Positions 1,523 through 39,004 of a stretch of 64,000 nucleotides of DNA are shown piece by piece (position 1 is the first letter of the stretch; each line of letters begins with the position of its first letter). Below the pieces are notes generated by a model. That model was not told the origin of the DNA and ran no database searches. It was given only the letters and a program-made list of their open reading frames with translations. The translations under genes and the position numbers were made by a program. The stretch comes from an uncultured Chloroflexia bacterium (lineage in GTDB: Bacteria; Chloroflexota; Ktedonobacteria; Ktedonobacterales; Ktedonobacteraceae): assembly GCA_963717195.1 (NCBI GenBank), contig CAVQVR010000021.1, positions 204,934-268,933 of the forward strand, in the 5' to 3' direction.

Positions 1523-1777
1523 CTAATCTCCCCAGCGACGGTGGAGTTTGCGGGCCAGCCGACGTTCGACATCCCAGCGCATCTGAATATAATAGTAGCG
1601 CAACCAGGCAGTGAAGCGTTCCCAGAATGAAGGTGGTGGGGGAGTAAAAGAGCGACGGGTATGTTCGTAAGAGTCATCTGTCGGTACAGGGACAGGTGAA
1701 CGCGGTAGCATCCACCTTCCAGGGTGCTTTTTTTGATGATCATTCGATGAAGGAAAGGCGTCACGCTTCTTTTTCAT
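1523..1777 (-). CDS. Hypothetical small protein (about 84 aa), no recognisable family
   Basis: The ATG at 1777 is preceded by a GGAGG Shine-Dalgarno (ccctggaggtttgATG). The product is basic and Pro/Trp/Tyr-containing (…SFWERFTAWLRYYYIQMRWDVERRL…). It is convergent with the GT4 gene. No homology recognised. Confidence 0.3.
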   Translation of the reverse strand: MKKKRDAFPSSNDHQKKHPGRWMLPRSPVPVPTDDSYEHTRRSFTPPPPSFWERFTAWLRYYYIQMRWDVERRLARKLHRRWGD

Positions 1778-23115: not shown

Positions 23116-23152
23116 CGAAAAACACGACATCCAGTTGGACATCGTGTTTTTC
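23116..23152 (-). terminator. Rho-independent terminator after rplU-rpmA
   Basis: On the minus strand: cgaaaaacacgatgtccaactggatgtcgtgtttttcgtttg, a stem followed by a U-run. It produces mirror ORFs in the six-frame track. Confidence 0.6.
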
Positions 23153-32870: not shown

Positions 32871-33848
32871 TCACTTCTTATTTATACCACAAGAGCCACA
32901 GCCATTGCTTTTACCACTGGTACTACAGGCGCCGCCTGAACCGCAACTACCACATCCTCCGCCTCCTCCACTGCCGCACCCACCTCCCTTGCTGCTACAA
33001 CAGGCACCACCGGAACCACAGCTTTTTTGTTCCTTTTCTTCATCTACCGGAACTTGAATTGTCACACCGCTTTCCAGCATTACCTCAACCGAATTTTGGG
33101 GCACATTGACCGAGACAACCTTCCCAGCACCACTGGGCGTCGTAAGCATTGTTCCAACCTGGGGCATCTGTCGCTTGGCCTGAACATAATTATCGTTCTC
33201 ATAAGAAAGACAACAGAGCAGGCGTCCACAGACACCTGAGATCTTCGAAGGATTGAGAGGAAGTCCCTGTTCTTTTGCCATTTTAATCGAGACGATGCCG
33301 AATTCTTTGATCCAGGAGCTACAACACAACGTTTTGCCACAAATGCCAACGCCCCCTTGCAGCTTCGCCTGGCCGCGTGCACCGATCTGACGTAGCTCAA
33401 TGCGTGTACGGAAAGTTGCGGCAAGATCGCGCACGAGGGCGCGAAAATCAACGCGTTCGTCGGCAGTAAAGTAAAAAGTCAGGCGACTGCCATCGAATGT
33501 GTACTCTGATTCTACAAGCTTCATCGGCAAGCTGTGCTGCTGAATGCGTTCAGCACAACGCACAAGCGCCTCTTTCTCCTTGCTTTTGAAAGAGAGCATC
33601 ATACGCAATTCATCTTCAGTTGCCAGGCGCAGAACAGGTTTTAGCGGATCGCTGAGGTCACTTTCCGCAATTTTTTTCGGAGCAATGACAACACGTCCGG
33701 CCTCTACACCACGTACCGTCTCTACAATAACATACTGACCTGTGTTAAAGGCCTGCTCTTGCGGATCGAAGTAATAGATGCGCCCGGCTGGTCGAAAACG
33801 AATGCCGACAATAAGAACAGTCTTTTCTGTACTCGTCGCCAGTGACAT
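32871..33848 (-). CDS. PSP1 C-terminal domain protein (YaaT/RicT-like) with a Cys/Gly-rich C-terminal tail
   Basis: VGIRFRPAGRIYYFDP…CGKTLCCSSW…ISGVCGRLLCCLSYE… is the YaaT family core. The tail is …SCGSGGACCSSKGGGCGSGGGGGCGSCGSGGACSTSGKSNGCGSCG. Confidence 0.7.
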   Translation of the reverse strand: MSLATSTEKTVLIVGIRFRPAGRIYYFDPQEQAFNTGQYVIVETVRGVEAGRVVIAPKKIAESDLSDPLKPVLRLATEDELRMMLSFKSKEKEALVRCAERIQQHSLPMKLVESEYTFDGSRLTFYFTADERVDFRALVRDLAATFRTRIELRQIGARGQAKLQGGVGICGKTLCCSSWIKEFGIVSIKMAKEQGLPLNPSKISGVCGRLLCCLSYENDNYVQAKRQMPQVGTMLTTPSGAGKVVSVNVPQNSVEVMLESGVTIQVPVDEEKEQKSCGSGGACCSSKGGGCGSGGGGGCGSCGSGGACSTSGKSNGCGSCGINKK

Positions 33849-34015: not shown

Positions 34016-34588
34016 TTACATTGCGTCCGTTAAGAGAATGGCCTCTGCAACCTCACGCATAGATTTGCGATTATTCATGCTGGCCTTCTGAATCTTGCGG
34101 AACGCTTCTTGCTCGCTAAGCCCCTGCTTTTCCATCAAGAGTCCTTTGGCACGCTCGACAATCTTACGTGCTTCCAGTTGTTCGTTTAATGTACGAGCCT
34201 TCTCTTCCATAGCACGAAACTCGTTATAACGCGCCAGTGCTACTTCTATCGCCGGAGTAACCTCGCTCTCACGCAACGGCTTCACGATGTAGTTCACCAC
34301 ACCGGCTTCCTTAGCACGTTCAACGAGTGGCTGGTCACCGAAGGCGGTGAGAAGCAGTACAGGAGCGATCTTTTCCTGTGTCAGCGTCTCAGCGGCTGCG
34401 ATTCCATCCATATCCGGCATACGGATATCCATAATCACCAGTTCTGGCCGCAACTTGCGGGCCAGGTTGACAGCGCTTACTCCATCACCTGCTTCACCGA
34501 CCACAAGATAGCCTTGTTTTGTCAGCACATCTTTCAGATCCATGCGCTGAATTGCTTCGTCATCTGCAATAATAATACGTGTTGGCAT
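34016..34588 (-). CDS. REC + ANTAR response regulator (AmiR/NasT-type antiterminator)
   Basis: IIIADDEAIQRMDL…LVIMDIRMPDMDG… receiver. ANTAR: ERAKGLLMEKQGLSEQEAFRKIQKASMNNRKSMREVAEAIL. Confidence 0.88.
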   Translation of the reverse strand: MPTRIIIADDEAIQRMDLKDVLTKQGYLVVGEAGDGVSAVNLARKLRPELVIMDIRMPDMDGIAAAETLTQEKIAPVLLLTAFGDQPLVERAKEAGVVNYIVKPLRESEVTPAIEVALARYNEFRAMEEKARTLNEQLEARKIVERAKGLLMEKQGLSEQEAFRKIQKASMNNRKSMREVAEAILLTDAM

Positions 34589-34744
34589 AGTCTCACCTCA
34601 AAACCTTTGGTCTCGTCCACCCTTTAGCCTCAATTCACTTCCCACGTTAGAGAGTATATCATACTAGACCGGATGAGTCGATAGGACTTCCATCCTTCGT
34701 GTAAAATTGACACCTTTGACAAAGGACAGTGTCGTCAATCGCAC

Positions 34745-34825
34745 GGACGCGATCAATCGCGCGGGCTTATAAATCGCGCCCCTACACCATTGGCGGCATG
34801 GGCTTGTCAATCGCGCTACATAACT
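34745..34825. repeat. Cluster of three short copies of the family terminal sequence (…GCGGGCTTATAAATCGCGCCCCTACACC…GGGCTTGTCAATCGCGCTACA)
   Basis: Immediately 3' of the DAHP synthase stop. Confidence 0.6.
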
Positions 34826-35891
34826 ATGCTACGCGTATTATTTCATCATCCTCTTGCATGATTTCTGCCATTATGCGGGCTTCGCGTACGACTTTCCGCA
34901 GTTGTTCAGGTGTAATAGATTGGCGGCCATCACACATCGCGCTATTAGGATCGGGATGCACCTCGATGATTAAACCTTCAGCCCCGGCTGCAATGCTGGC
35001 CCGTGACATGGTTGGCACTAATTCGCGTCGACCAGTAGCGTGACTGGGATCAACAATAACGGGAAGGTGAGTAAGCTCGTGGAGCAAGGGAACACAGGAG
35101 AGGTCAAGTACGTTGCGCGTCTGAGAGTCATAACTACGGATGCCACGTTCACAGAGGATGACGTTGGGATTACCTGCCGCTACAATATACTCCGCTGCCA
35201 ATAACCATTCGTCAATCGTAGCCGACAGGCCCCGTTTTAACATCACGGGTCGCTTATGACTATCTCGTCCGGCGGCGCGTAAGAGCGGGAAGTTCTGCAT
35301 ATTGCGGCTCCCAATCTGCAATATGTCGGCATGTTCTGCGACAACATCGACCAGTTCTGGCTCCATCACTTCGGTAATCACGGGAAGCCCTGTGAGCTGG
35401 CGTGCTTCTGCCAACAGATGCAGCCCTTCAACGCCCAGACCCTGGAACTGATAAGGAGAAGTACGCGGCTTGAATGCTCCTCCACGCAAAATATGAGCAC
35501 CAGCTTCCACAACGGCCTGCGCCGTCGAGAGCAACTGTTCGCGATTTTCTACTGCGCATGGCCCTGCTATGATGACTGGTAATGCGGATGCTCCCCCAAC
35601 CGTAATTGGCGTGCAGTCATGTCCATTACCCACAATGATGCTTGTGTTCTCTGCCTGGAAGACTCTGCTTACAAGCTTATAAGGAGTCTTTATTTGCATA
35701 ACCCGCTCGACAGCTGGCTGCTGCTCAAGTACAGTCTGTGCCTCTGATGAATGATGTTCGAGCACAATTACCTCTCGCCCTCCCATGTTCGTTGTCGTGA
35801 TAGGATGCTGGCTGTCAGTGATACGACCCAGAAGTGCGATGAGTTGAGAACGTTCAGTACTGTTTGCCTGACTACGAATGGTGATGATCAT
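34824..35891 (-). CDS. aroG: 3-deoxy-D-arabino-heptulosonate-7-phosphate (DAHP) synthase, class I-beta type with N-terminal regulatory domain
   Basis: …[46 protein letters not shown]…ITEVM…[11 protein letters not shown]…KRG…DPSHATGRR… is the DAHPS/KDO8PS core. Confidence 0.8.
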
Positions 35892-35934
35892 GATCTAAAT
35901 CCTCTCTCTGCAATCTACAATAAAAAATTTCGGG

Positions 35935-35966
35935 AAACAAAAAAGCAGAGGTTTTTTCCTCTGCTT
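35935..35966 (-). terminator. Intrinsic terminator about 40 nt upstream of the DAHP synthase start codon (attenuator terminator)
   Basis: On the minus strand: gaagcagagg-aaaaaa-cctctgctt followed by ttttgttt. Confidence 0.7.
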
Positions 35967-36014
35967 CTCCAGCACGCTGGTGGTCATTTTTTGCTCAGCC
36001 CAAAGGGCCCACCA

Positions 36015-36077
36015 TCATGCTGGAGGGCTAAACCAATAATAAAAGCTAAATTGTTTGTTTATCTGGTCGCTGAGCAT
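36015..36077 (-). CDS. Leader peptide MLSDQINKQFSFYYWFSPPA (20 aa) for aromatic amino-acid attenuation
   Basis: Read directly from the minus strand: atg ctc agc gac cag ata aac aaa caa ttt agc ttt tat tat tgg ttt agc cct cca gca tga. Six Phe/Tyr/Trp residues fall in seven codons. The stop lies inside the 5' arm of a 17-bp stem (36009-36025 pairing with 35967-35983) that abuts the terminator. Confidence 0.65.
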   Translation of the reverse strand: MLSDQINKQFSFYYWFSPPA

Positions 36078-36140
36078 TTGTATATCCGGTTTCTTGTTTT
36101 TATTTTTGCGGTGACTCTAAGTCACACAACTCATGTACTG

Positions 36141-36170
36141 ATTATAAAGGCTTTCTATGTCTGATGTCAA
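36141..36170 (-). promoter_or_regulatory. Sigma-70-like promoter (TTGACA-N18-TATAAT) driving the aroG leader
   Basis: On the minus strand: ttgacatcagacatagaaagcctttataat. The predicted TSS is about 55 nt upstream of the leader-peptide ATG. Confidence 0.6.
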
Positions 36171-36538
36171 GGGGGGTGACTGGATAGTTTTGCCATAAAG
36201 TAGCCGTGAATATATTACATTGTGACAATAAGGGCTTAAGCCCGCCGCAAGCCGCAGGGTTTGAACCCCTGGGGGTAGGGCATCTGTCGGCTTGAGCCAG
36301 AAGTCCTCGTATTTTGCATCGCCCCTCACGCTATTCCCTACCCACTACGGACTCAAATATACTTGCTATCAGATGACCAACCCTGTGTATTTCTGCTTGA
36401 TAATGTCAGATATTGATAAATTACAGATGGCCTTACCCTTTATGCTTGACATTCAGTGTATCGGTGCTTTCTAATAAAACCAGTTCCACTCGCATTGGGG
36501 TGGAGATGGTTCTGATGAAAGGAAGCTGATATCTACCC

Positions 36539-39004
36539 ATGAAACATCTGCATCTTTCGCATAATTGGTTATTTAAACAACGTTCCTCTACCCACTCTCT
36601 ATCTGACGACTTCTCTTCCCCACATGAATGGTTACCAGCGACGGTCCCCGGAACTGTTCATCAGGATCTGCTCACGGCTGGCCGCATCCCCGATCCTTTT
36701 CTGGCATTAAATGAGAACGAGGTACAGTGGGTCGGCGCATCAGACTGGCTCTATAAGTGCACATTCGATCGCCCACCGGATTTTGAAAATGCAGATGAAA
36801 TTGTGCTCTGTTTCGATGGACTCGATACTTTTGCTACTGCCTGGCTCAATGGCACGCAGCTTCTTACCAGCGAGAATATGTTTGTACCACAGCGGATTCA
36901 CATCACTTCTTTACTTCGTCCAGGTCTCAATGAGCTACGAATTTTGTTTGCATCAGCCTTGCAGCGTGGTAAAGAACTTGAAATGCAGTATGGCGAACGC
37001 TTTGTCTGGAACGGTGATGCCAGCCGCGTCTATGTGCGCAAAGCTCAGTATCACTACGGCTGGGATTGGGGTCCGACGCTGCTCACGGCTGGCATCTGGA
37101 AACCAATACACCTTGAGTCCTACAGCGCTCGGATCGCGGATATTCATTGTCCAGCTACCGTTGCTGACGATCTTCAAAGCGCAACATTCCCTCTGCATGT
37201 GGCTCTCGAAACAGGCAACTTATTTTCTGACCTGACAGCACGCATAGTGATCTACGCACCCGATGGCGAAACTGTTGCCGAGACACAACTCCCGGTCACC
37301 GATACACGCATGCAGCATACCTTCAACCTCGCTTTACCTCAGCTCTGGTGGCCAAATGGTTATGGAGAACAGCCATTATATCGGTTGGAAGTAACATTGC
37401 TGCGGCAGTCAGAGGAGCTTGATTGGCAGGAGATACGTCTCGGCCTGCGTCGCCTGCGCCTGATACAACACCCCTTTGAAGATGAGCCTGGAACCAGTTT
37501 CTTTTTTGAGATCAATAATACGCCTGTTTTCTGTGGTGGTGCAAACTGGATCCCCGCCGATTCGTTTACTCCCCGCGTGACGCCTGAAGGATACCGCGCA
37601 TGGGTGCAGCTCGCTGCTGCAGCCAATATGACGATGCTGCGCGTCTGGGGCGGTGGTATCTATGAAGACGAGGCATTCTATACAGCCTGCGACGAACTTG
37701 GCTTGCTCGTATGGCAAGATTTTATGTTTGCCTGTGGACTCTATCCTGCTCACCCAGAATTTCAGGAAAGCGTACGTGCCGAGGCCGAAGCTGCTGTGAG
37801 GCGGTTGCGTCACCATCCCTCCCTTGTTATCTGGGCTGGCAACAACGAAGATTATGGAGTTGCGAAATCCAGGCATGTGTATGATCCAGAGTTCGAGGGT
37901 GATTTTACGCAAACGGGATTTCCCGCCCGTGCTATTTATGAGCAACTTCTACCAGACATCTGCGCAAAGCTTGATCCCACACGTCCCTACTGGCGTGGTA
38001 GTCCCTATGGCGGCGCAGATGGCGGAGATGACCGCACTATTGGCGACCAGCATATCTGGAGCATCTGGCATGGCGCGGTCCCTTACCAGGATTATCCAAA
38101 TTTTGCAGGACGTTTCGTCAGTGAATTCGGTATGGAAGCCTTTCCGGTGATGGAAACCATCGCGCACTTTGCCGCCCCACCAGAGCTCTATCCACAGAGT
38201 CGTACACTGGATTTCCATAATAAAGATGCTGGCGGCCCCAGGCGGATCGCACCCTATCTCATTGAAAATGTGCGTATTGTTGCCGACCTCGAAGGGTATA
38301 GCTATCTGACCCAGCTTGTGCAGTCGGAGGCCTTAACTGCTGCATACCGTGGTTGGCGGCGGCGTTGGAATGGACCTGGATGCGAATATACGGCGGGCGC
38401 TCTGGTCTGGCAACTCAACGACTGCTGGCCCGTAACAAGCTGGGCCATTATAGACTATTACCTGCGCCCCAAGCCCTCTTACTACAGCATACGCCGCGAA
38501 CTTGCACCCTTTGTCGTCGGATTGGCACGCACTTCACAGAAAACCATTTCTGCCTGGACCGCCAACGGTTTGCATAGCGTCGGAAATGCGGAACTGGAGG
38601 TACGTGCCTGGGCGCTTAACGGAAAGCTGATTAGTGAGGAACGTCGCCCGGTAGTACTGGCCTCCAATCAGAGTGTAGAACAGGGAGAATTTGCCAGCGA
38701 GCGCAACGATACATGGGTCGTTGCAGCGCGACTCTTCAAAGATGGTAACATCGTCGCGCGTACAACCCTCTGGCCGGAGCCGTTTAAGTATCTGACTTTG
38801 CCCGATCCAGAAATAACTATTGAGCGCCTTGGGATGGACACCTTGCGTCTGCATGCAAAGCGACCGGCGAAAGGTGTATGGCTCTCAACTGGTGATGGCG
38901 TCATATGGAGCGATAATATGCTCGATCTGATGCCAGATGATCCTCAAATAATCGTCGCGCAGGGTCTCAATGAAACCCAGATACACGTGAAATGGCTCTC
39001 ATAG
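36539..39004 (+). CDS. Beta-mannosidase (glycoside hydrolase family 2)
   Basis: 821 aa with the GH2 beta-mannosidase N-terminus (…WLPATVPGTVHQDLL…) and the catalytic region …WAGNNEDYG… / …VSEFGMEAFP…. Confidence 0.8.
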   Translation: MKHLHLSHNWLFKQRSSTHSLSDDFSSPHEWLPATVPGTVHQDLLTAGRIPDPFLALNENEVQWVGASDWLYKCTFDRPPDFENADEIVLCFDGLDTFATAWLNGTQLLTSENMFVPQRIHITSLLRPGLNELRILFASALQRGKELEMQYGERFVWNGDASRVYVRKAQYHYGWDWGPTLLTAGIWKPIHLESYSARIADIHCPATVADDLQSATFPLHVALETGNLFSDLTARIVIYAPDGETVAETQLPVTDTRMQHTFNLALPQLWWPNGYGEQPLYRLEVTLLRQSEELDWQEIRLGLRRLRLIQHPFEDEPGTSFFFEINNTPVFCGGANWIPADSFTPRVTPEGYRAWVQLAAAANMTMLRVWGGGIYEDEAFYTACDELGLLVWQDFMFACGLYPAHPEFQESVRAEAEAAVRRLRHHPSLVIWAGNNEDYGVAKSRHVYDPEFEGDFTQTGFPARAIYEQLLPDICAKLDPTRPYWRGSPYGGADGGDDRTIGDQHIWSIWHGAVPYQDYPNFAGRFVSEFGMEAFPVMETIAHFAAPPELYPQSRTLDFHNKDAGGPRRIAPYLIENVRIVADLEGYSYLTQLVQSEALTAAYRGWRRRWNGPGCEYTAGALVWQLNDCWPVTSWAIIDYYLRPKPSYYSIRRELAPFVVGLARTSQKTISAWTANGLHSVGNAELEVRAWALNGKLISEERRPVVLASNQSVEQGEFASERNDTWVVAARLFKDGNIVARTTLWPEPFKYLTLPDPEITIERLGMDTLRLHAKRPAKGVWLSTGDGVIWSDNMLDLMPDDPQIIVAQGLNETQIHVKWLS

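Follow-up and report, generated by a model that had tools for sequence, protein, structure and literature searches.

The 64,000-nucleotide window analyzed here (positions 204,934 to 268,933 of contig CAVQVR010000021.1) comes from an uncultured bacterium, and its protein matches point to the Ktedonobacteraceae, phylum Chloroflexota. The aroG gene in this window, which encodes a type I 3-deoxy-D-arabino-heptulosonate 7-phosphate (DAHP) synthase, is preceded by a leader that is very likely a leader-peptide attenuator responding to aromatic aminoacyl-tRNA. It is also probable, with somewhat less assurance, that this is a ribosome-mediated attenuator making aroG transcription depend on how much charged Phe-, Tyr-, and Trp-tRNA is available, with a long RNA helix (arms B and B′) as an antiterminator that abuts the terminator (arms T and T′); the abutting-helix mechanism by which it would act is put forward tentatively. 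All coordinates are positions in the window, and the leader elements were read directly on the minus strand.

Organization of the aroG leader

An initial annotation of this region had described a classical trp/phe-type attenuator, and the component parts that it listed are all present (Table 1). The promoter matches TTGACA-N18-TATAAT at 12 of 12 positions and is the only perfect match within 34500–37000 (a promoter scan of 2.5 kb); we predict that leader transcription starts at about 36134–36136. The leader open reading frame (ORF) does lie downstream of the promoter, although the interval from the end of the -10 box to the ATG is 63 nt and not the "about 55 nt" previously proposed. The 20 codons of the ORF can be read directly, with six aromatic residues among the seven of FSFYYWF and Phe, Tyr, and Trp all represented. 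Its UGA stop codon lies within the 5′ arm of a 17-position helix, B:B′, which has 16 pairs (one of them G.U) and one A.G mismatch and encloses a small GCCC-UUU-GGGC hairpin (h). The GC-rich terminator that follows has a 9-bp stem, a hairpin energy of -13.6 kcal/mol, and a U6GU3 tract reaching to 35935, 43 nt from the aroG ATG at 35891, and the identity of the downstream gene as DAHP synthase is clear (PF00793, E = 6e-78). The 244-nt leader folds with an energy of -71.3 kcal/mol, compared to -52.5 ± 4.0 for dinucleotide shuffles (z = -4.8, 0/200).

Two further conserved features were absent from the initial annotation. One is a pseudoknot in which the start region of the ORF (S1) pairs with the loop of the long helix (S1′), and the other is a local hairpin, X1:X2 (CCCUCCA/UGGUGGG), that competes with the long helix and carries the leader stop codon in its loop.

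Conservation and coding signatures

The initial annotation had suggested that orthologous aroG upstream regions be searched for an aromatic-rich mini-ORF. A protein-guided scan with one genome per species identified 16 Ktedonobacteria orthologues, 15 of them with upstream sequence, and all 15 loci have a mini-ORF ending in ...F-Y-Y-W-F-S-P-P-A/T, together with the helix and an identical terminator stem; the carriers include Ktedonobacter racemifer, two Dictyobacter species, and Thermosporothrix hazakensis. Because these loci were found by protein similarity, the sample is unbiased. A scan of metagenomes using the terminator as the pattern brought the total to 45 distinct leaders of the window type.

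The leader ORF has the signatures of a translated sequence. In an alignment of 33 close relatives, the ATG and the conserved TTTAGCCC are always a multiple of three nucleotides apart, with seven different lengths represented; stop codons are present in frame 0 in none of the 33, and in the other two frames in 15 and 28 of them. The N-terminal part of the peptide varies freely in these same leaders, and the changes in the codons preceding Ser-Pro-Pro are almost all synonymous or replace one aromatic residue by another (TAT/TAC/TGG/TTT). The aromatic runs of the more divergent members are YWYYF, WYYYYF, FAFYFTW, YWYYWY, and FWFW, and among 42 distinct peptides the nine residues before the Pro-Pro pair include an average of 5.6 aromatics, with Phe, Tyr, and Trp all present in 39. 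Because the frame is kept, in-frame stops are lacking, and aromatic codons exchange for one another, this is the pattern expected of an ORF that is translated and whose codons are read by the ribosome, and not one that a functional peptide, or an RNA with a structural role only, would show. The arrangement of aromatic leader ORF and terminator in front of DAHP synthase, as first annotated, is thus a conserved one.

A promoter of the form TTGAC(A/T)-N17-19-TAnnnT is located 5′ of the leader ORF in 40 of 44 members. In 32 of these 40 the -10 box ends 41–90 nt before the ATG, and most have a GGA 8–10 nt before the start codon; in the remaining eight (L015, L016, L090, L092, L132, L168, L175, and L197) it ends 6–9 nt before the ATG, and we therefore predict that the leader peptide of these members is translated from a leaderless mRNA.

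Distribution of the leader family

The same metagenome scan revealed a second, GC-rich group of leaders with ORFs of 11–12 codons, such as MERIFFFYRYPA, MTRTFYFRCPA, and MGAFFFYRNPA, each ending at a stop codon. These have in common with the window type a 5′ arm containing CCN-GCA-UGA (Pro-Ala-stop), a 3′ arm of (G)UCGUGCYGG, and the same terminator, and DAHP synthase is encoded downstream in all 28 loci with enough sequence. Protein names assign this group to Candidatus Limnocylindrales. We considered and rejected the possibility that they are signal recognition particle-like RNAs, as they form the Limnocylindrales branch of the same leader family; Rfam searches of the Limnocylindrales-type loci gave tRNA matches only. 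A Thermomicrobium metagenome-assembled genome (MAG), L033, encodes MGSGVLRHQVWFAYYFTPPALLAGRRVLKR, which again ends at a stop codon, and has the same terminator core. Because the Limnocylindrales and Thermomicrobium leaders share the terminator and the Pro-Ala-stop core, the window leader is by sequence comparison one branch of a superfamily present in at least three Chloroflexota classes.

The genes behind the leaders of this family always belong to the aromatic pathway, being either aroG itself or a tyrA-like or chorismate-mutase-like gene and then aroG. Reading of the sequences identified a prephenate-dehydrogenase-like or AroH-type chorismate-mutase-like gene before aroG in L191 and L175 (35–37 nt past the terminator) and in L122 (49 nt), and the position of such genes between leader and aroG fits a role in the control of aromatic biosynthesis. 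An ORF resembling 5-enolpyruvylshikimate-3-phosphate synthase was likewise recognized by reading, 3′ of aroG in L115 (4228–5631).

Three Limnocylindria-like MAGs (L039, L041, and L052) have an unrelated family of aromatic leaders, about 150 nt upstream of aroG. Their 8-codon ORFs, MTYQWFYG, MSYMWFYV, and MTFQWFYG (pattern M-T/S-Y/F-Q/M-W-F-Y/V-G, then stop), place the stop codon at the base of a helix after the aromatic run, and the 3′ arm of that helix abuts a different terminator. Judging from its sequence and layout, this family has apparently converged on the plan of the window leader.

Aromatic-rich mini-ORFs were also noted before type I DAHP synthase genes elsewhere, in L036, L061, L073, and L080 (Acidobacteria), in L029 (Planctomycetota), and in L063, L066, and L072; the Acidobacteria leaders share ...YRYWFF(T/D)SGSGE.

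Conserved RNA helices

Covariation was scored in the close subgroup of aligned leaders as the proportion of cells that are paired and the number of pairs that have changed on both sides. For B:B′, 95% of cells are paired and three pairs have changes on both sides, and the helix is rebuilt from wholly different sequences in L014, L015, L016, L090, L120, L197, and L033. Hairpin h occurs in the alignment with the compensated variants GCCU/AGGC and GCUC/GAGC. For S1:S1′, a duplex of -18.6 kcal/mol, 98.5% of cells are paired and two pairs are changed on both sides, L011 providing a compensatory pair (GCACAGC/GCUGUGC). Across subfamilies, where S1:S1′ was measured with a fixed middle segment, the divergent members have non-homologous helices at this site, for example GCAAACCCAAC/GUUGGGUUGUGC in L090 and UACCAAGCCC/GGGCUUGGUA in L016. 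Covariation thus supports three predicted helices, B:B′, h, and S1:S1′, and the strand order S1-B-S1′-B′, together with a third loop rich in A, corresponds to an H-type pseudoknot.

The local hairpin X1:X2 has an energy of -11.3 kcal/mol. In folds of the growing transcript it appears first, with B:B′ replacing it only once B′ has been made, in all 14 representatives examined, which cover all of the subfamilies.

The relation of these helices to the terminator is one of close spacing. The linker between B′ and T is 0–3 nt in all 45 distinct leaders. The terminator stem does not vary among any of the Ktedonobacteria orthologues from the protein-guided scan, and Thermomicrobium has its core too; the terminator loop varies both in sequence and in length (5–9 nt). 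In the Thermomicrobium leader L033 an extended terminator stem, GGCG-AGCAGAGG...CCUCUGCU-CGCU, takes in the four nucleotides (GGCG) with which B′ ends, so that the two truly overlap.

Fold tests of the switch

Classical attenuation as initially annotated should be recognizable from mutually exclusive 1:2, 2:3, and 3:4 structures. The long stem and the terminator of the window are instead compatible; B′ and T have no nucleotides in common, both helices coexist in the minimum free energy (MFE) structure, and no overlapping 2:3 helix was found in the window or in its 45 relatives. With a ribosome mask of 28 nt placed at every codon, the terminator has a probability of 0.96 in the equilibrium fold at each masked position; we dropped this as a test of switching, as a classical control from Acidobacteria behaves alike. 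A replacement test measured the pairing probability of T just before T′ is transcribed. In the Acidobacteria aroG leader L061, used as a control, T is paired with a probability of 0.31 in ribosome-free RNA, 0.86–0.88 with the ribosome on the aromatic codons, and 0.25 with the ribosome at the stop codon, making L061 a clean 1:2/2:3/3:4 switch in silico. The same test of 12 window-family leaders gave no consistent dependence of T pairing on ribosome position. RNAduplex found no conserved upstream partner of T or T′, only lineage-specific chance matches, and no antiterminator with nucleotides in common with the terminator 5′ arm turned up in the window or in 12 representatives, the 4-nt overlap of L033 being the only instance.

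The masked folds do respond to ribosome position at B:B′. This helix is whole with the A site on F12–Y14, has lost three pairs at W15, and no longer appears in the nested MFE structure when the A site is on any codon from F16 to the stop, Pro-Pro included; the mask at F16 covers just the first six nucleotides of B. In these models a stalled and a finished ribosome are told apart by B:B′ only.

The Limnocylindrales branch behaves differently in one respect. In ribosome-free RNA, T pairs with the aromatic codons in seven of eight leaders (P = 0.71–0.86), and the probability is mostly 0.1–0.35 with a ribosome there. In the window type, which has UUU/UAU codons and an inserted UGG-UUU, next to nothing is left of this pairing (median P over the 45 leaders, 0.06; window, 0.02). 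We note that T′ (CCUCUGCUU) resembles a perfected CC-UUC-UAC-UU string, which is the best lead that we have for the invariance of T.

Proposed mechanism

What can be observed is the spacing, the covariation, and the geometry of the ribosome on the leader, and from these we infer every step of the following mechanism. When aromatic aminoacyl-tRNAs are plentiful, the ribosome would enter B and dwell at the Pro-Pro and UGA codons, melting B and leaving B′ as a long, free, single-stranded tether while T and T′ are made; with B′ free the terminator would close, and transcription would end near 35935. Under a shortage of these tRNAs, the ribosome would stall on F12–F16, 4–8 nt short of B, and B:B′ would form with its base jammed at the mRNA entry. 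T would then be held on a tether of 0–3 nt, and because B′ abuts T by 0–1 nt in the window the lowest T:T′ pairs would be unable to close inside the polymerase exit channel; with T:T′ blocked, the polymerase would continue into aroG. In RNA without a ribosome X1:X2 would form first and B:B′ would be delayed, favoring termination and giving a default off state, and once the pioneer ribosome has gone by, S1:S1′ may cover the start codon of the leader. The proposed antiterminator would thus act by abutting the terminator (in Thermomicrobium by overlapping it) and not through a long shared strand. We suggest that B:B′ has this function because it alone differs between the stalled and the finished ribosome and because its only conserved relation to the terminator is one of position.

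Several observations weigh against this mechanism. No fold, either at equilibrium or before T′ is made, sequesters T with the ribosome on the aromatic codons, and the step from a formed B:B′ to a blocked terminator is drawn only from spacing and steric reasoning. The pairing of the Limnocylindrales T with aromatic codons occurs in ribosome-free RNA, and a stalled ribosome would undo it. Only 25 of the 45 leaders have three or more contiguous pairs between the B′ 3′ end and the U-run, and we accordingly discarded the idea that such G.U and A-U pairs provide a universal extension of the terminator. Lastly, the dwell at Pro-Pro is a presumed one, because CCUCC is also constrained by RNA pairing.

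Alternative explanations

The textbook four-segment attenuator, with the long stem as 1:2, the terminator as 3:4, and a hidden 2:3 helix forming on stalling, would account for the classical order of leader ORF, long stem, and terminator; a 1:2-like helix, X1:X2, exists and competes with B:B′, and the extended terminator of Thermomicrobium has 4 nt in common with B′. It seems distinctly unlikely, as B′ and T of the window have no common nucleotides, RNAduplex finds no conserved partner for either terminator arm, and T pairing does not follow ribosome position consistently in 12 leaders, whereas the Acidobacteria control moves from 0.31 to 0.88 and back to 0.25. An inverse logic is also conceivable, in which the antiterminator consists of the aromatic codons and B paired with B′ and T and exists only in ribosome-free RNA, so that aroG would be on when translation is fast or absent. 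The pairing of T with aromatic codons in seven of eight Limnocylindrales-type leaders and its loss under the ribosome are what this predicts, and the likeness of T′ to a Phe-Tyr-Phe codon string would account for the invariance of T; however, a biosynthetic gene under feedback control would need the opposite sign, the window type has virtually none of this pairing, and the conserved Pro-Pro/UGA within B suggests selection for ribosome dwell rather than for fast clearance, and we consider this alternative unlikely. A TnaC-like arrest peptide, in which ...WFSPPA stalls the ribosome at UGA in the presence of a free aromatic amino acid or intermediate so that B is open and termination ensues, would explain why the C-terminal FSPP(A/T/V) is nearly invariant and why the stop codon, located inside B, is UGA in 38 of 42 distinct leaders, although the FSPP nucleotides are also under RNA-pairing constraint. 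The aromatic positions interchange freely, as in FYYWF, FWYWF, YYYWF, YWYYF, and WYYYYF, five long-ORF members translate beyond PP(A/T), and CCUCC is explained by its pairing with GGAG, with compensated CCGCC/GGCG in L122; arrest of this kind is therefore very unlikely.

It is highly improbable that the leader is primarily a protein-, tRNA-, or metabolite-binding RNA (an ANTAR target, a T-box, or a riboswitch) with an incidental ORF. Such an RNA could well have a conserved pseudoknot and an invariant terminator stem, and 12 of 14 Ktedonobacteraceae loci have an ANTAR regulator gene in synteny on the downstream side of aroG, but the frame and aromatic-codon signatures point to translation, and Rfam gives no match at the gathering score and only chance-level matches at E values up to 10. 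ANTAR-regulated terminators have a pair of hairpins in tandem, both with conserved hexaloops, and the second of the pair overlaps the terminator. The terminator loop of this family is not conserved, no dual hexaloop or second hexaloop hairpin is evident by reading (a formal motif search was not part of this), and the leader is kept without an ANTAR neighbor within the 3 kb fetched in L015, L016, L023, and L033. We give hardly any weight to ermC-like translational attenuation, in which T′, with its anti-Shine-Dalgarno-like CCUCU, would mask the aroG Shine-Dalgarno sequence unless T:T′ forms. T′ of the window is indeed complementary to GCAGAGAGAGG at the aroG ribosome-binding site, yet over 29 loci the duplex of T′ with this site ranges from -2.6 to -10.9 kcal/mol, no better than that of any anti-Shine-Dalgarno-like string; the spacing between them is 33–164 nt in 28 of the 29 loci and 959 nt in L191, and T:T′ with U6GU3 is a canonical terminator.

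Relation to known systems

The leader resembles the Escherichia coli trpL and pheL (pheA) leaders in having a promoter-proximal mini-ORF with a run of codons for the end products and, between it and the biosynthetic gene, an intrinsic terminator, and in the predicted use of ribosome position as the sensor, a ribosome at the stop codon preventing the helix that opposes the terminator. It departs from them in that B:B′ abuts the terminator without a shared strand, in that a local hairpin, placed after the regulatory codons, takes the part of the 1:2-type competitor, and in having a start-region pseudoknot, codons for all three aromatics, and a Chloroflexota host. The wiring is thus without the overlapping antiterminator of the classical class, and otherwise the leader is predicted to work like members of that class. 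No Rfam family matches the window leader, including Trp_leader RF00513, which is named in PMC4046766.

In Corynebacterium glutamicum the aroR leader (Phe-Tyr-Phe) precedes the DAHP synthase gene aroF and acts by attenuation, and it is reported to respond to Phe and not to Tyr (Neshat et al. 2014, cited in PMC11802643 and PMC4046766). This too is an aromatic leader peptide controlling a DAHP synthase gene by attenuation; it differs in belonging to the Actinobacteria and, as judged from the cited descriptions only, to an unrelated sequence family. The Corynebacterium ilvB-II motif, which has branched-chain codons, is similar in that its upstream ORF extends across a first hairpin (P1), a terminator hairpin (P2) comes next, and the antiterminator is not a simple 2:3 helix, the proposal being that the loop of P1 pairs with the terminator at its 3′ shoulder (PMC10272879); in the window, by contrast, the loop of B:B′ pairs with the first codons of the ORF. 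The actinobacterial LEU element also combines a leader ORF with a conserved pseudoknot, but it lacks a terminator and has the leuA Shine-Dalgarno box as its target (PMC1262725), whereas the window leader has a canonical one; the authors of that study noted that many non-proteobacterial attenuators are without classical components (PMC1262725). The Acidobacteria leaders (L036, L061, L073, and L080) share with the window an aromatic-rich leader ORF and a terminator before type I DAHP synthase. Their sequences are unrelated to that of the window leader and in silico they are classical, with a mimic of the terminator arm inside the ORF that pairs with the aromatic codons or with T according to ribosome position.

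A survey published in 2010 noted that demonstrated cases of leader-peptide attenuation were essentially confined to Proteobacteria and Actinobacteria, to which the survey added Firmicutes (PMC2965389), and we found no earlier description of it for Chloroflexota in the searchable literature. The initial annotation had remarked that such a device would be unusual for the lineage; this holds for the searchable literature but not for the genomes, in which the leader is widespread across the Chloroflexota. The kind of system is therefore known, while the family, the phylum, and the variants of the regulated operon are new.

If this reading is right, a large, sequence-conserved, and unannotated attenuator family controls the entry step of aromatic synthesis in a fourth, poorly studied phylum. 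Its natural variants, which include leadered and leaderless forms, short and long ORFs, leaders with and without the pseudoknot, and abutting and overlapping helices, make it testable whether an upstream helix can block an intrinsic terminator by position alone. The family also supplies an annotation rule for dozens of 'hypothetical' mini-ORFs, and a regulatory element that could be removed for aromatic production in these actinomycete-like, metabolite-rich bacteria. More speculatively, and as a generalization that we ourselves regard as doubtful, the Ktedonobacteria, Thermomicrobia, and Limnocylindria leaders may represent a phylum-wide attenuator class with no strand shared with the terminator, a helix anchored at the stalled ribosome that keeps the T arm on a 0–3 nt tether and so prevents the hairpin from closing within RNA polymerase, a pseudoknot at the start codon that restricts translation, and a T arm shaped by complementarity to Phe and Tyr codons.

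Other features of the leader and the window

Table 1. Positions of the aroG leader elements, aroG, and canonical terminators in the 64-kb window
Feature	Position	Strand	Remarks
Promoter TTGACA-N18-TATAAT	36141..36170	-	-35 box 36170-36165, -10 box 36146-36141; 12/12 match
5′-proximal hairpin, core GUGAC-UUAGA-GUCAC	36106..36129	-	In both MFE and centroid folds
Shine-Dalgarno-like GGA of leader ORF	36085..36087	-	8-10 nt 5′ of ATG; spacing recurs in most leadered members
Leader ORF MLSDQINKQFSFYYWFSPPA and UGA stop	36015..36077	-	20 codons, ATG 36077 to TGA 36015
S1 (UGCUCAGC)	36069..36076	-	5′ strand of predicted pseudoknot helix; includes UG of start codon
Regulatory aromatic codons (predicted)	36030..36050	-	UUU (F10), AGC, then UUU UAU UAU UGG UUU (F12-F16)
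X1 (CCCUCCA)	36021..36027	-	Last Ser-codon base and Pro-Pro codons; pairs with X2 or 3′ end of B′
B, 5′ arm of long helix, ctccagcatgatggtgg	36009..36025	-	Contains UGA stop 36017-36015; pairs with B′
X2 (UGGUGGG)	36008..36014	-	Partner of X1; alternatively pairs with CCACC of B′
Hairpin h (GCCC-UUU-GGGC)	35998..36008	-	Within apical loop of B:B′
S1′ (GCUGAGCA)	35992..35999	-	3′ strand of predicted pseudoknot; then A-rich loop 35991-35984
B′, 3′ arm of long helix, ccaccagcgtgctggag	35967..35983	-	Last pair 0-1 nt from terminator
Intrinsic terminator	35935..35966	-	T AAGCAGAGG 35966-35958, loop A6, T′ CCUCUGCUU 35951-35943, then UUUUGUUU
Shine-Dalgarno element of aroG, AGAGAGAGGA	about 35907-35900	-	
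aroG, DAHP synthase	34824..35891	-	355 aa, type I, PF00793 E = 6e-78
Canonical terminator	1707-1728	+	Own scan
Canonical terminator	23121-23148	-	Own scan
Canonical terminator	35940-35969	-	Own scan; the leader terminator

The hairpin near the predicted 5′ end is probably a 5′ stabilizer that lies outside the switch; in orthologues the hairpins at this site are unrelated in sequence.

Past the leader UGA, the in-frame stretch 36015–35895 (minus strand) reads UGG UGG and a 37-codon open frame that crosses the terminator and stops 4 nt 5′ of the aroG ATG. Read-through of the UGA into this frame was considered and rejected, as relatives have early stops; the frame is not conserved in them and is probably due to chance. 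An overlapping mini-ORF after the leader stop, AUGAUGGUG, is not conserved and was likewise set aside, as was a second promoter between the terminator and aroG, for which there is just 33–34 nt in the closest-spaced relatives (L007, L014, L149, and L170).

No tRNA genes were found in the 64-kb window, and Rfam returned no match in it at the gathering score, with only chance-level matches at E values up to 10 within 35700–36600. Our own scan for canonical hairpin-and-U-run terminators found only three in the window, of which that of the aroG leader is the one located in a 5′ leader; an automatic terminator scan overlooked it, apparently because its stem can extend into the U-run. The terminator at 23148–23121 (minus strand) is located after an rpmA (L27)-like ORF.

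Downstream of aroG are a REC-ANTAR response regulator (34016–34588, minus strand) and a PSP1-domain protein with a Cys/Gly-rich C-terminal tail (32871–33848, minus strand). The order aroG, ANTAR regulator, PSP1 is found in 12 of 14 Ktedonobacteraceae loci, across which the ANTAR regulator is 86–94% identical, exceeding the conservation of aroG itself.

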